A stretch of DNA of 64,000 nt, from IMG/VR virus record IMGVR_UViG_3300032093_000005; one strand, written 5' to 3'. Below are positions 6,725 to 55,243 of the stretch, piece after piece. A program made the position numbers and the translations under genes. The notes beneath the pieces are model-generated. The model searched no databases. It saw only the letters and a list, made by a program, of their open reading frames with translations, and was not told the origin of the DNA. The first letter of the stretch is position 1. Every line of letters begins with the position of its first letter. Source of the DNA: a virus (taxonomy: Duplodnaviria; Caudoviricetes).

Positions 6725-8404
6725 TTATATCTTCCCACCTTTGGGTTCTGGTATTTCTACTGCTGTAGCATTTACAGTTGGTTCAAGTGGAACTTCTCCA
6801 CTAACACCTTGTTCTATTCCTTGTGCTTGATCTTGAGGAATGGGATTACCCATTTCATCAACAGGAGCATTTGGATCTGGTAAAATGCCCTTAGCAATTT
6901 CATCTTCAATTTGAAGATCAATCTCAATAATTTCAGAATCTGTTTGACGAAGAATTTTCTTACGAACATACTCAGTAGAATAGTATTTGCCAATGTATGG
7001 TTCAATCGTTGTTGCAAGAGTCAAGCGATTTGTTAATAATTCTGCTTCTTTTAATTCTGCAAAATGATTGTCATATAAGAAATCATATTGAATATGATCA
7101 CTCATCTTCTCCCAATCTTCTGGAGAAACAATGTTCTTAAGAAGTAACTGAGTGCGAAGAATATCATTGAAAAGATTAGCAAATCTTTTTCTAAGTCTTC
7201 CAACAAATTTAGAAAACATTAATTCATCACGAAGAATTTCTGATGATCTACCTAAATTAAATCCATCACCACCACCAGCAATTCTTGTTTCTGGAACTCC
7301 AAGTGCTCTATAAAGTTTCTTTTGGAAGTATTCAATATCCGAAAGTTCTCCAAGATTTTGTCCACCGGGAAGAGTAGTAATTTCAGTCCCTCTACCACCT
7401 TCTCTTCTTGGAAGCCAAAAATCTTCAAGCATACTCATAAATTTACGATCATCACGAACTTCGCCTGTATTAGCATCATAAACAAGTTTATTCCTATAGC
7501 GAGACATAACCTCTTTGAGGTACTGTTCTGCTTTTACTTTTGGAAGATTTCCTACATCAATGTAGAATATTCTACGTTCTGGAGCTCTAGATAGTCTATA
7601 AATTACAAGAGAATCCTCAATCATTCTTAACTGATTGAGTCCTTTAATTGCTTTGTGAAGATATGAAAGAACGGTTCCTTTATTTCTATCTACTAAACCC
7701 GATGTGCAATAAGTTACAGAATCTTTTGCGATTTTGATTCCTTTTTTTGAACCACCACTGATTGTCCCCGTTGGGAAATTTGGCATAGGAGTATATACAA
7801 AATACTCCTCAATTTCTGGAAAGTTGAATTGATCAGCATCATTTCCAGTTCTTAAATTTAAATTTCTATATCCATTTAATCCATTTTCCGTCTTTTTTTC
7901 CTGACGGACATGTTTCATTTTCATTGGATCAATATATCTAATTTCCTGAATTCCTGCCTCAGGATTTTTTTGATCGATGACTTTTAAATAAAATAGTCTA
8001 CCATCAATATACCAATTTCTGAAAATTTCATGACACTTTTTATCAAAGTCCATGACTTCTTTAATATATTTAAATTCTGCTCTAATAACATCTTTCAATC
8101 TATCACTTGCATTCAAATTTGAAAGTTCAATCTCAACAGGAGAATCATAAAGATCACTAACAATTGCTTCATTAACAATGTTTTCAATTGCACTGTCACA
8201 CTCTGGATGAAGTGCCATTTCACGATAACGACGAATTAAATCGTACTCTGTTCTGTAAACACCTTCAATATCTACATATTGTCCATAAAATCCAGACTGA
8301 ATAAAATAGTCAACCCCGTCCTCATTACTGGGAGGAACGGGGGCAACAACAGATTTCGATTTTTTTACATTATCCTCAATCGAAAAACCAAAAAGTTTCG
8401 CCAT
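6725..8404 (-). CDS. gp20: portal protein (gp20)
   Basis: MAKLFGFSI, YRLSRAPERRIFYIDVGNLPK, EDFWLPRREGGRGTEITTLPGGQNLG. Confidence 0.99.
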   Translation of the reverse strand: MAKLFGFSIEDNVKKSKSVVAPVPPSNEDGVDYFIQSGFYGQYVDIEGVYRTEYDLIRRYREMALHPECDSAIENIVNEAIVSDLYDSPVEIELSNLNASDRLKDVIRAEFKYIKEVMDFDKKCHEIFRNWYIDGRLFYLKVIDQKNPEAGIQEIRYIDPMKMKHVRQEKKTENGLNGYRNLNLRTGNDADQFNFPEIEEYFVYTPMPNFPTGTISGGSKKGIKIAKDSVTYCTSGLVDRNKGTVLSYLHKAIKGLNQLRMIEDSLVIYRLSRAPERRIFYIDVGNLPKVKAEQYLKEVMSRYRNKLVYDANTGEVRDDRKFMSMLEDFWLPRREGGRGTEITTLPGGQNLGELSDIEYFQKKLYRALGVPETRIAGGGDGFNLGRSSEILRDELMFSKFVGRLRKRFANLFNDILRTQLLLKNIVSPEDWEKMSDHIQYDFLYDNHFAELKEAELLTNRLTLATTIEPYIGKYYSTEYVRKKILRQTDSEIIEIDLQIEDEIAKGILPDPNAPVDEMGNPIPQDQAQGIEQGVSGEVPLEPTVNATAVEIPEPKGGKI

Positions 8405-49981: not shown

Positions 49982-50098
49982 TCAGTGGCGCACCATCTCA
50001 GCAGCGGTGGACAGTGCATCCGCTGTCACAGTGCGGATCGGGCGAATCGGTTCCCAGAGAATCCAGAGCAGTAGGGTTGCGATCATCAGGCGGAGCAT
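49982..50098 (-). CDS. small membrane peptide (38 aa)
   Basis: MLRLMIATLLLWILWEPIRPIRTVTADALSTAAEMVRH; leader ATCCTACCATG shared with upstream ORF. Confidence 0.6.
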   Translation of the reverse strand: MLRLMIATLLLWILWEPIRPIRTVTADALSTAAEMVRH

Positions 50099-50301: not shown

Positions 50302-50562
50302 TCACCCGAACAGGGCAGCGGCAAGACGATCACGCTTGCGGATCTTATCGGGAAAAATGCTCCACTGATCACGCTTGCCATCAGGGCGCAGTGTGGCGGT
50401 GAGAATGCCCTCCCGCTCCATCTCCACCATAATGGCGTGAACAGTGCCCTTATGCTTACGGGGGTCCATTCCCATGCCGCGCACAATGTCGCTGCATGTT
50501 TGCTCGCCGTTCTGAATCAGTGTGGCGCGGACGGCGGTGCGGATGGCGGTTCGGAGGTTCAT
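50302..50562 (-). CDS. winged-helix-like DNA-binding protein
   Basis: NGEQTCSDIVRGMG...TVHAIMVEMEREGIL..T..PDG..W pattern typical of wHTH. Confidence 0.55.
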   Translation of the reverse strand: MNLRTAIRTAVRATLIQNGEQTCSDIVRGMGMDPRKHKGTVHAIMVEMEREGILTATLRPDGKRDQWSIFPDKIRKRDRLAAALFG

Positions 50563-50587
50563 CGGAGTGGTGTGGTGAACTGATACC

Positions 50588-50683
50588 AGTATGGGGGCAG
50601 ATGGGGGGCAGATCCATCCAGGTTGTGCCAGTGGTCAGACTGTCCACCGATGCGGGTTTTGCGGGGGATCGGATGCTTATAAT
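50588..50683. promoter_or_regulatory. divergent promoter pair sharing one palindromic box
   Basis: Box GTGCCA-N10-TGTCCAC 50625-50647; minus -10 CATACT 50588-50593; plus -10 TATAAT 50678-50683, each ~30 nt from the box. Confidence 0.7.
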
Positions 50684-50689
50684 ACGGGG

Positions 50690-50805
50690 ACAATCAAGAG
50701 AGGGGCAGGGTCGCCCCGTTGACGCAAACGGTCGCCACCGAACCTGCCTGCCGGTATTATAAAAAAAAGTATAAAGAAAGGGGGCGGATTGTGCCCCCTC
50801 TTTTA
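50690..50805 (+). ncRNA. putative small RNA, copy A
   Basis: No ORF; plus-strand promoter, GGGGC/GCCCC hairpin, ends at hairpin plus T tract; homologous to 52490-52604. Confidence 0.5.
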
Positions 50806-50809
50806 TACT
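50768..50809. terminator. bidirectional terminator
   Basis: GGGGGC-7nt-GCCCCC stem flanked by AGTATAAAGAAA and TCTTTTATACT. Confidence 0.8.
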
Positions 50810-50815
50810 TTAGGA

Positions 50816-51088
50816 TCAGACTTCGATCTGTTCAATGTCACCATGCTTCAGAGCACGGTTAAACAACTGACCCCAAGATGTTGCCGCTTTGTCTTCATCA
50901 TTGGAGAGAAGTGCAAACCAACGCTCACACTCACCTTCATCTTCCCAAGCGTAGCGATAAACTTTATCGCTGCTGTTAAATGTCACCAGCAGATCGTAAC
51001 AATCCCCATCGGCGCGAACAATAGCAAGATGGGCGATGGCGCTGGATTGAACGCTGGCGCTGATCGTGAAGTCGGTTGCGGTTGCCAT
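50816..51088 (-). CDS. KTSC-domain-like protein (start moved to MATAT)
   Basis: SSAIAHL...LLVTFNSSDKVYRY...SWGQLFNRALK matches KTSC pattern SS.I..v.Y...L.V.F..G..Y.Y...S.G..FN..Ik. Confidence 0.6.
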   Translation of the reverse strand: MATATDFTISASVQSSAIAHLAIVRADGDCYDLLVTFNSSDKVYRYAWEDEGECERWFALLSNDEDKAATSWGQLFNRALKHGDIEQIEV

Positions 51089-51158
51089 AGTGTCGTTTGC
51101 GGTTGACTCTGTAAGTCTACAGGATAGGTGGGGGGCATCCGCGCCCCCCGTGTGCATC

Positions 51159-51836
51159 TTAACGATCTGTCACAATGGCGTCAACTGCCTTCTTAGCAGT
51201 CCCGTGTGCAGGAAATGCTATAATAAACTCACGGTCGGATTGTTGACACAAACCGCAGGTGCTGCAGTTAACTTTACCCTTGTGAATCTTAGCAGGGCAA
51301 ACAACAACCTTACGACCGCTCTCAGTGTTAAAGAACCGCCGCGATTCTGTGGAAGGAACAACAGCAACCGCAGGGATTCCGTGCTCTGACATAACCGAAT
51401 CAGCAACCTCTACGGATTCTGTGCTCACGTTGACTGTGAACCCGTTAGCGTTAGCGTTCTGAATCACTTTTAGGTTGTGATCATTCAGAACGTGGTGAGT
51501 GTAGGTGAAACCTTTCTTGCCACGATTTGCCCGCACAAGTGCATCAACCATCAGCGGATTGATGTCACCTAAGAGATGCGGGAGATCCCCAGTTACGTTA
51601 TGACGCCATAAAGAATTGGGGGCAAATTTACGAACCTTGGAGATAAACTCATCCCAAGATACGCCGCGCTCGTGATTAGAAACCTTGCGCCAATGTACAC
51701 CCTGTAGATGATACTTACCGTAGCACCCTGTTTCATAAAAAGGGCAGGCAGTTGAGCAGGATGCCCGTTCTGTGACGGTGGTGGGGATCGGTCCCGTGTT
51801 GCTGTTGCCTGAGGCGGTGGTGATGGCGACTTGCAC
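51159..51836 (-). CDS. Cys-rich GP88/radical-SAM-like putative Fe-S protein (probable GTG start at 51836)
   Basis: N..TGPIP, CSTACPF..TGCY, WRHNVTGDL, GFTYTH, GFTVNVS, CPA..V.CSTCGLC, IAFPAHG. Confidence 0.55.
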   Translation of the reverse strand: MQVAITTASGNSNTGPIPTTVTERASCSTACPFYETGCYGKYHLQGVHWRKVSNHERGVSWDEFISKVRKFAPNSLWRHNVTGDLPHLLGDINPLMVDALVRANRGKKGFTYTHHVLNDHNLKVIQNANANGFTVNVSTESVEVADSVMSEHGIPAVAVVPSTESRRFFNTESGRKVVVCPAKIHKGKVNCSTCGLCQQSDREFIIAFPAHGTAKKAVDAIVTDR

Positions 51837-51862
51837 GGTGGTGTGGTGCGGTTGACCTTTTA

Positions 51863-51921
51863 AGTATAGGGGTTGGGGGCACCCTGTCGATGCCCCCTGT
51901 GCCACCTTGCCAACTGTCACA
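51863..51921 (-). promoter_or_regulatory. early promoter with palindromic box
   Basis: TCGACA-16-TATACT; box GTGCCA-N10-TGTCAC at 51899-51920. Confidence 0.75.
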
Positions 51922-52339
51922 CCTTCCAGAGTTTCTCTTCAATCAGGCGATCAATCAGTGCCTTAGAGAGTGAACCACAGTGCTCACAATGCGATTCCAG
52001 GTTGATACGTTCATGCAGAGAATTACGATAGCAGTAATGCTGAAAGGATGCAAAATGCCAGCGATAAACTGCACTCAGAGTCTGCAGATACTTACGGAAG
52101 ACAACATAATCCGAATAATCTGAGAACCTTCTGATTGTATGATAAACAGAGTTAAATCCCCGAAAATCTGTAGTGTGGCGATTGCGACCACGACAATACT
52201 TAAGAGTATTCATAATCACCTCAGTGTAATGCTCATTGAAAAACTTTGAGGTGACTTCTTGACAAATACGATCCAAATCTTTGATCTGGTTGGAGTTAAG
52301 ATCCTGATCCAGGGAAGGATTAAAGAAAGGGGTGTTCAT
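51917..52339 (-). CDS. hypothetical early protein (probable start MNTPFF)
   Basis: ORF with C-terminal CEHC; upstream extension in track runs through promoter/ncRNA region. Confidence 0.7.
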   Translation of the reverse strand: MNTPFFNPSLDQDLNSNQIKDLDRICQEVTSKFFNEHYTEVIMNTLKYCRGRNRHTTDFRGFNSVYHTIRRFSDYSDYVVFRKYLQTLSAVYRWHFASFQHYCYRNSLHERINLESHCEHCGSLSKALIDRLIEEKLWKV

Positions 52340-52425
52340 GGTGGTGGGGTGGTGTGTGGTCGGCGTCAGTGGTGCGCCGTTGACGGAATGATGAACGATG
52401 AGAACCTGCCACCACAAGCGGGTTT

Positions 52426-52483
52426 GTGCCACCTTTAGAACTGGCACAACCCACCGGGTTTTGATGCGGTCTGGCAGTATCCT
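52426..52483 (+). promoter_or_regulatory. plus-strand promoter with palindromic box
   Basis: GTGCCA-N10-TGGCAC 52426-52447, 30 nt, -10 TATCCT 52478-52483 followed by ATGGGG. Confidence 0.65.
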
Positions 52484-52489
52484 ATGGGG

Positions 52490-52604
52490 ACAATCAGATG
52501 AGGGGAGGGGTATCCCTGTGGACGACAACACATCGCCACCGCCCCTGCCATAAAATAATAGAATGTGAAGAATAGTAAAAAGGATCAGGCACCACCCTGA
52601 TCCT
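52490..52604 (+). ncRNA. putative small RNA, copy B
   Basis: Shares GGGGACAATCA..GAGGGG, GACG..AAC..TCGCCACCG..CCTGCC and A-rich tail with copy A. Confidence 0.5.
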
Positions 52605-52695
52605 CAGCGTCCACATCACCTTAACCATGCTAGAATTATCTGTTCGCTTCGTGGGTGACTTTCTTTTAGCGGAGGCAAACCCCTTCCTCCTTGTC

Positions 52696-52884
52696 TTATA
52701 ATTCTACCATCCAGTCTGGGTCATTGTCAAGTGTTGCCCAGAAATGATTGCGACCGTTCAATGATGTGAGAAACACTTTGTTACCTTTGTGTTGCTCAAT
52801 GATGCAGATCTCGATGCGATTCATGATGTTCGAGAATCTGTTCTTTGCTTTCTTCGAGATTGGTGTAACAGATGCAGTTTGCAT
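52696..52884 (-). CDS. hypothetical early protein (probable start MQTASV)
   Basis: 62 aa; upstream extension overlaps the repeat cluster. Confidence 0.7.
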   Translation of the reverse strand: MQTASVTPISKKAKNRFSNIMNRIEICIIEQHKGNKVFLTSLNGRNHFWATLDNDPDWMVEL

Positions 52885-52890
52885 GATGGT

Positions 52891-53022
52891 CTCGTCGAGA
52901 TGTGCATAATCTAGTTGATCTTGCTGATCTCGTCGAGAGAGGTGTACCACTAGATGAACTGGCACACCTCGACGAGTTTCAGAACTGGATCTCGTCTAGT
53001 GTTGGAACATTATCTTGACTAG
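52891..53022. repeat. cluster 2 of CTCGWCGAG palindromic repeats
   Basis: Exact copies at 52891, 52929, 52968; variants CTCGTCTAG 52991, CTTGACTAG 53014. Confidence 0.8.
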
Positions 53023-54998: not shown

Positions 54999-55056
54999 AA
55001 TTTACGGGATTCTCAGCAGTCCGTCAAGACCCTTGTGCCACTACAGAAACTGGCAT
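54999..55056 (-). promoter_or_regulatory. early promoter with palindromic box
   Basis: TTGACG (55022-55027)-17-TAAATT; box GTGCCA-N10-TGGCAT at 55035-55056. Confidence 0.75.
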
Positions 55057-55243
55057 AAGCAGATCCCGAATCCGCAGGAGTTGTGCTTCATCCTCTGGCG
55101 TCTCACAGTCTGCCAAATCTACAGGAGCACATTCCTCCAAGTCAACCATCCCATACACATTGATCGGTGCAAAGAACAACTCATGGTTGTCCACAAAGTA
55201 TAAGCAACCGTGACCGTTCTCAATGTAAAACTTGGTGGGCATG
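55024..55243 (-). CDS. hypothetical early protein (probable start MPTKFY)
   Basis: ~72 aa ORF; track start lies in terminator region. Confidence 0.6.

Follow-up and report, generated by a model that had tools for sequence, protein, structure and literature searches.

The window analysed here, a stretch of 64,000 nucleotides, is part of the 174.7-kb IMG/VR virus record IMGVR_UViG_3300032093_000005 (Duplodnaviria; Caudoviricetes) and carries two short homologous intergenic units, copies A and B, which are described below as putative small RNA genes. The virus is a freshwater T4-like cyanophage; its closest named relatives were S-SRM01 (Kyanoviridae), a myovirus of freshwater Synechococcus, and DSL-LC03, a phage assembled from a metagenome. 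From 49.1 to 53.6 kb, all credible genes were found on the minus strand and both RNA copies on the plus strand, each unit filling precisely the gap that separates a terminator on the minus strand from the promoter following it on that strand. The order along the plus strand was the same in both units: a palindromic box, the weak -35 GGGTTTTG, a -10 box of the type TANNNT, two bases, the core, an A/U-rich tail, and a hairpin. The preliminary description had placed two homologous plus-strand copies about 1.8 kb apart, each behind a box, a GGGTTTTG tract, and a -10 box (TATAAT and TATCCT, respectively), and all of these were present as described. The coordinates are collected in Table 1.

Table 1. 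Features of copies A and B and of the neighbouring genes, in window positions
Feature	Position	Strand	Remarks
Copy A unit	50686-50809	plus	
Upstream palindromic box A	50624-50646	both	TGTGCCA-N10-TGTCCA; between the divergent -10 boxes of RNA A (plus) and gene 50302-50562 (minus)
Promoter A	50654-50683	plus	weak -35-like GGGTTTTG 50654-50661; -10 TATAAT 50678-50683
Core A	50686-50748	plus	5' GGGGACAATC; covariance-model match 85.3 bits
Core A hairpin	50702-50717	plus	GGGGC / loop AGGGTC / GCCCC
Core A 3' blocks	50732-50740; 50743-50748	plus	TCGCCACCG; CCTGCC; two variable bases between
Tail A	50749-50809	plus	A/U-rich; abuts the stop codon of convergent gene 50816-51088
Terminal hairpin A	50779-50799	both	bidirectional terminator; U tract on either strand
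Copy B unit	52486-52605 or beyond	plus	
Palindromic box B	52425-52448	both	perfect TGTGCCA-N10-TGGCACA; between RNA B and divergent gene 51917-52339
Promoter B	52456-52483	plus	GGGTTTTG 52456-52463; -10 TATCCT 52478-52483
Core B	52486-52549	plus	covariance-model match 83.9 bits
Core B hairpin	52502-52517	plus	GGGGA / loop GGGGTA / TCCCT; G:U at base
Core B 3' blocks	52533-52541; 52544-52549	plus	TCGCCACCG; CCTGCC
Tail B	52550-52605	plus	A/U-rich stretch and terminal hairpin
Terminal hairpin B	52580-52605		conserved loop GCACCACC; good terminator on the minus strand only (gene 52696-52884)
Possible 3' extension of RNA B	52606-52699	plus	conserved spacer, conserved TANNNT 52631-52636, second hairpin
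Hairpin 2	52671-52690	plus	loop CAAACCCCTT (CAAACCCCUU), covarying stems, plus-strand U tract
Gene	50302-50562	minus	86 aa, winged-helix; divergent from copy A
Gene	50816-51088	minus	phrog_4357; convergent with copy A
Gene	51159-51836	minus	DUF7227
Gene	51917-52339	minus	divergent from copy B
Gene	52696-52884	minus	phrog_1653; convergent with copy B

Copies A and B shared 76% identity across about 230 nt in a pairwise alignment covering box, promoter, and core. Moreover, the 3' block TCGCCACCGNNCCTGCC common to both occurred twice in the window, compared with 0.08 occurrences expected by chance. The shorter GGGGACAATCA was unremarkable by itself (12 matches with at most two mismatches vs. 15 expected), and a third exact GGGGACAATCA, at 7759 inside a coding region, was dismissed as a chance match. 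The homology of the two copies is established, and that they are paralogous genes transcribed into small non-coding RNAs is a proposition to which we would give roughly half of our confidence.

The distribution of the family was investigated by motif scans of IMG/VR and metagenome contigs and then with a covariance model built on nine copies. This work gave sets of 56 and 106 matches, in which 105 cores were distinct; they came from two GenBank phages, 31 viral contigs, and 82 metagenome contigs (the assemblies partly overlapping). The idea of a structured phage RNA family read against the early genes, suggested by the two copies alone, is well supported by these 105 variants, the conserved plus-strand promoter, the covarying hairpin, its wobble pairs in one sense only, and the lack of an Rfam match. 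The only GenBank phages with the family were S-SRM01, which had two copies in the same arrangement, and DSL-LC03, which had one; the RNA was unannotated in both, and the S-SRM01 paper makes no mention of it. In the five whole records searched, this region and no other contained the RNA, with one or two copies per record, and up to four copies were found in two contig loci (L255 and L250). Three or four diverged RNA copies lay at L255:6719-9874 and L250:1762-7076, and two copies in L255 faced each other 48 nt apart (7889-7951, plus; 8000-8062, minus). The synteny was stable, the A type adjoining a homologue of gene 50302-50562 and the B type lying between homologues of 51917-52339 and 52696-52884, with varying genes between the A and B types.

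When 185,579 species genomes were scanned with a strict motif, 75 matches were attributable to chance, and the sole real match was a mis-binned phage contig. This contig, L267 (JAIYDG010000246.1, 7.9 kb), is filed as a Bacteroidetes metagenome-assembled genome and contained the RNA and five neighbouring phage genes, as a mis-binned cyanophage fragment. Furthermore, the covariance model yielded chance-level scores only, and no credible match, in 121 host-family genomes. As far as sequence searches can tell, the RNA family is restricted to phages. Rfam 15 gave no match at the gathering score over the whole window, and at E up to 10 over 50600-52650 it gave three chance-level matches, all outside the cores. 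An Rfam family already on record, which would have taken away the novelty of the RNAs, was not among the matches. In addition, ARAGORN detected no transfer RNA (tRNA) or tmRNA in the window, and an acceptor-like pairing of the 5' and 3' ends, as in a tRNA-like molecule, was lost in members whose 5' end varies. Neither RNA was followed by a plus-strand gene, which a riboswitch or leader would need. Taken together, the comparisons indicate that this is a real and previously undescribed family of phage small RNAs.

The core was 63-64 nt long in copies A and B and 61-66 nt across the family. In two independent alignments, all cells of the core hairpin were standard pairs (217/217 and 363/363, 580 in total), compared with about 68-70% in the shuffle control. 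Double changes were observed in all five stem pairs, and the covariation scores were 0.82 and 0.80, compared with 0.22 for shuffled alignments and at most 0.17 when the partners were slid. About 18 different stems carried a near-constant loop, RGGGUM. The compensatory change between the two copies that had been noticed earlier (GGGGC/GCCCC vs. GGGGA/TCCCT) is real and is one of these stem variants, and the covariation expected of homologues was present at all five pairs in both alignments. Wobble pairs occurred in the plus sense only, with 27 and 46 G:U (73) and no A:C; because G:U was present and A:C absent, the hairpin folds in this sense only, and the plus-strand RNA is the selected molecule. 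On either side of the hairpin were invariant and apparently single-stranded blocks, 5' GGACAAYC and 3' UCGCCACCG-NN-CCUGC, which were unpaired in every supported fold. Candidate pairings of the 5' and 3' ends, of GAC with GUC, and of the G-rich with the C-rich half were not kept across the variants. The structure is modest: one 5-bp hairpin and another at the end, and nothing that amounts to a larger fold.

A predicted promoter of its own, as a trans-acting small RNA would have, preceded the core in the family members with enough upstream sequence. TANNNT was found in 43/43 of these promoters; its offset was identical in 38 and deviated by no more than a few bases in the others, and at least 12 different hexamers were present. 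A box half-site lay 51-54 nt upstream of the -10 in 33/43. In two lineages, the box was replaced by a canonical -35 (TTGACG-16-TAGAAT in DSL-LC03 and TTGACA-17-TACAAT in L257), and the -10 and the start were kept. That one type of promoter can take the place of another around an unchanged start is to be expected of a gene that is transcribed. The RNA would start about 7 nt past the -10, inside GGGGAC, which would explain why the invariant part is only GGACAAYC; the predicted 5' end is at or near GGACAAUC, within GGGGACAAUC.

The box had the consensus TGTGNCA-N10-TGNCACA, and about 15 boxes were clustered at window positions 48.9-71 kb, mostly preceding minus-strand genes at about 24-33 nt from TANNNT (for example, at 50030, 51151-51174, 51898-51921, 52943-52966, 55034-55057, and 59339). 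Perfect boxes were also found in S-SRM01 and two related records, compared with none for the reversed-pattern controls. The box looks like the mark of an activator-dependent promoter class confined to this region. In both RNA genes, it lay between divergent -10 boxes, with TATGAT/CATACT, six bases, and AGTTCAC on the minus side. Since minus-strand genes carry the same class of box, the RNAs are probably made together with these neighbouring, presumably early genes and co-regulated with them. The 86-aa product of gene 50302-50562 was predicted as a winged-helix protein (pLDDT 91), with MarR/PadR regulators as the best fold matches (E ~3e-3). It is an attractive candidate for a box-binding regulator, but the case was weakened by S-SRM01, where boxes and RNAs are present and the complete genome lacks a homologue of this protein.

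Several features of the minus strand were observed beside these promoters. The homologous spacers 51100-51180 and 51848-51925 contained a box, a GC hairpin (GGGGGG...CCCCCC) at the -35 position, TATCCT/TATACT, and a short leader, and resembled the promoter/stem-loop cassettes known as PeSLs of other T4-like phages. The leaders at 50563-50585, 51837-51860, and 52340-52365 were C/A-rich, of the CACCACACCACC type, and lay just before the start codon with no Shine-Dalgarno sequence. The GCACCACC in the loop of the B-type terminal hairpin was similar to these leaders. PeSL cassettes of T4-like phages are regulatory spacers facing the same way as genes (PMC2839356, PMC4122927). The RNA units are like them in being repeated intergenic modules with a terminator-like stem-loop and a presumably early promoter among small genes of a variable region; unlike them, they have a conserved and putatively transcribed 63-nt core that reads opposite to the genes here.

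From these features the following mechanism can be proposed. Host RNA polymerase would transcribe the RNAs, the weak -35 being backed by the upstream box or, in some lineages, replaced by a canonical TTGACA. The predicted products (RNA A, about 120-125 nt; RNA B, either about 120 or about 210 nt) would consist of an invariant block, the hairpin with its RGGGUM loop, a second invariant block, an A/U-rich stretch, and the terminal hairpin. They would act in trans, most likely by base-pairing of the C-rich 3' block, the 5' block, or both with a conserved host or phage RNA. Their anatomy is that of a trans-acting small RNA: conserved blocks left unpaired, a single hairpin of the recognition type, and an A/U-rich stretch ahead of the terminal hairpin. 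We judge the chances to be about even that copies A and B encode trans-acting phage small RNAs, presumably early. The homology, the promoter signature, the hairpin covariation, the strand, the restriction to phages, and the lack of a coding signal are established; transcription and its timing, the 3' end, the action in trans, and the target we infer.

A number of results weighed against this reading. The G:U pairs were mostly in the terminal stem pair, and without it about 9 G:U vs. 0 A:C were left. RNAalifold and mutual information revealed no helix beyond the 5-bp core hairpin, and the core was not unusually stable (z = +0.9 and -0.6). Searches of sequencing runs found no RNA run containing the region; four runs labelled 'RNA-Seq' with small shares are probably DNA contigs of related phages and are uninformative on expression. 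When the conserved blocks were scanned for duplexes with the phage genome, nothing emerged but the antisense strands of the loci themselves and glycine-repeat coding sites, and a scan against one Cyanobium 16S rRNA was no better than shuffled queries, a 7-nt match to GUGGCGA in helix 23 of the 16S being at chance level. Moreover, the plus-strand U tract was present in copy A and was weak or absent in most other copies. On the minus side, the terminal hairpin was accompanied by a long U tract, and many copies had A:C in the plus sense where the minus sense has G:U; the B type combined such A:C mismatches with the lack of a plus-side U tract. This pattern argues that selection on the terminal hairpin is for termination on the minus strand. 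The A-rich tail and hairpin that had been assigned to the RNAs are present, with the correction that the hairpin serves first of all to terminate the convergent minus-strand gene.

The 3' end of RNA B could lie further downstream in some members. Hairpin 2 could end the form of about 210 nt in a subset of B types; the extension with this hairpin was found in only 25/115 members with enough flank. A kissing loop between the core GGGGU and the ACCCC of hairpin 2 (CAAACCCCTT) can be drawn in some B types and was discarded, as it showed no covariation and hairpin 2 is missing from most members. The conserved non-coding spacer 52606-52730 also contains a strong minus-strand TTGACA-18-TAGAAT at 52730-52701, and may represent either a further small transcript or an extended 3' untranslated region (UTR).

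The anatomy and the duplex scans bear also on a different mode of action, in which the RNA binds a protein. Instead of pairing with an RNA, the RGGGUM loop and the C-rich blocks would bind and sequester a protein of the host or the phage; candidates are a translation factor, a defence nuclease, an RNA chaperone, or an RNase. Recognition hairpins typically combine a conserved loop with a stem that covaries freely, as is seen here, the scans found no complementary RNA target, and CCACC-type motifs recur in the core, in the B-type terminal-hairpin loop, and in the neighbouring leaders lacking a Shine-Dalgarno sequence. However, the neighbouring proteins had no RNA-binding signal, the protein atlas gave no lead, and no partner protein was identified among them; the CRISPR-DR families of Rfam did not match the RNA cores at E up to 10, and no other decoy-like Rfam family did so. 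A decoy of this kind is unlikely, though worth keeping in mind.

The exact fit of the units between terminator and promoter would suit an element acting in cis, whose counter-flow promoter insulates the cassettes or whose transcript is antisense to read-through transcripts or, for B types, to the 3' UTR of 52696-52884. It would agree with the scan result that the best duplex partners in the genome were the antisense strands of both loci, and with the B types, whose first hairpin lacks a U tract on the plus strand and whose transcripts may extend about 115 nt into the convergent 3' UTR. However, interference needs neither invariant blocks of 8-9 nt nor a hairpin that covaries and keeps its loop. 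Little read-through is to be expected from minus-strand terminators that look as strong as these, and the low frequency of the hairpin-2 extension also speaks against it. We regard an action in cis, conceivable mainly for B types, as rather improbable.

Type I toxin-antitoxin loci with convergent 3' overlap are known, such as txpA/ratA and bsrG/SR4. RNA B and the convergent gene 52696-52884 resemble them in that they may overlap at their 3' ends. Unlike in such loci, the 62-aa product of 52696-52884 was hydrophilic with no membrane helix, and A types lack the overlap. The convergent 62-aa and 90-aa products were both hydrophilic, and neither was the small hydrophobic peptide of a type I toxin.

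Origins of promoter-driven R-loop design are known in T4, and the preliminary description had considered the units as R-loop primers. By this account, a transcript hybridised over an A+T tract would prime the leading strand, as at T4 oriF (uvsY) and oriG. The arrangement is alike in having a dedicated promoter followed by an A+T-rich tract in a T4-like genome: in every copy, the promoter was followed by a G-rich 5' half of the RNA and then by a tract of about 35 nt with about 85% A+T, although this tract is partly the U tract of the minus-strand terminator. Unlike at oriF and oriG, the RNA hairpin and the invariant single-stranded blocks are selected and the 3' half is C-rich. Because a C-rich 3' half is unfavourable to a stable R-loop, an RNA hairpin and unpaired blocks are selected, and two same-sense copies lie 1.8 kb apart, the primer idea is disfavoured and very unlikely. 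Finally, a DNA-level element (a protein-site array or a single-stranded DNA hairpin) or a small protein gene on either strand is extremely unlikely: the invariant blocks could be binding sites, and in 67/105 copies frames of at least 15 codons begin on the minus strand with an ATG that is complementary to the CAT of GCCATAAAA, but pairing was kept by double changes with wobbles in one sense only, and, as had been noted earlier, no reading frame is shared, the core lengths differing by 1-3 nt so that frames differ, ATGs being irregular among the 105 cores and missing in many, copy A included, and the 25-codon frame of copy B existing without being conserved.

Compared with known systems, a trans-acting small RNA of copies A and B would be like phage and prophage small RNAs in being a short non-coding unit with its own promoter, single-stranded blocks, a hairpin, and a terminal hairpin. 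The cyanophage non-coding RNAs on record are CfrI, PhotoRC-II, wcaG, manA, glnA, and abiF (PMC9964418). Unlike CfrI, RNAs A and B are not antisense to a gene, and unlike the riboswitch-like motifs, they are not upstream of one. They differ from all of those listed in being two paralogues with box-type promoters and no Rfam match. The arrangement of copy A, divergent from a winged-helix gene with a palindrome between both promoters, also recalls pairs of a regulator and a small RNA. In bacteria, divergent pairs of this type include OxyR-oxyS, GcvA-gcvB, and SgrR-sgrS. Unlike in these pairs, the winged-helix gene is not a necessary partner, since S-SRM01, whose genome is complete, has both RNAs and the box but not this gene.

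Little is known about small RNAs in lytic phages; for T4-like cyanophages, an antisense RNA and some riboswitch-like motifs are, to our knowledge, all that has been characterised. The family described here is well defined, with 105 variants, clean covariation, a clear promoter, and restriction to phages. In a more far-reaching and doubtful extension, the RNA pair might be a host-takeover device of freshwater T4-like cyanophages, in which co-regulated early RNAs capture a conserved host RNA or protein of defence or translation, or else prime replication origins. If the host-takeover or primer reading were true, T4-like cyanophages would have their first class of small RNAs with a defined function. 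The cultured pair of S-SRM01 and Synechococcus sp. KCZYC6 carries the family, so its expression and role are directly testable. In addition, the family offers a handle on the box-dependent promoter class that apparently organises the variable early region.

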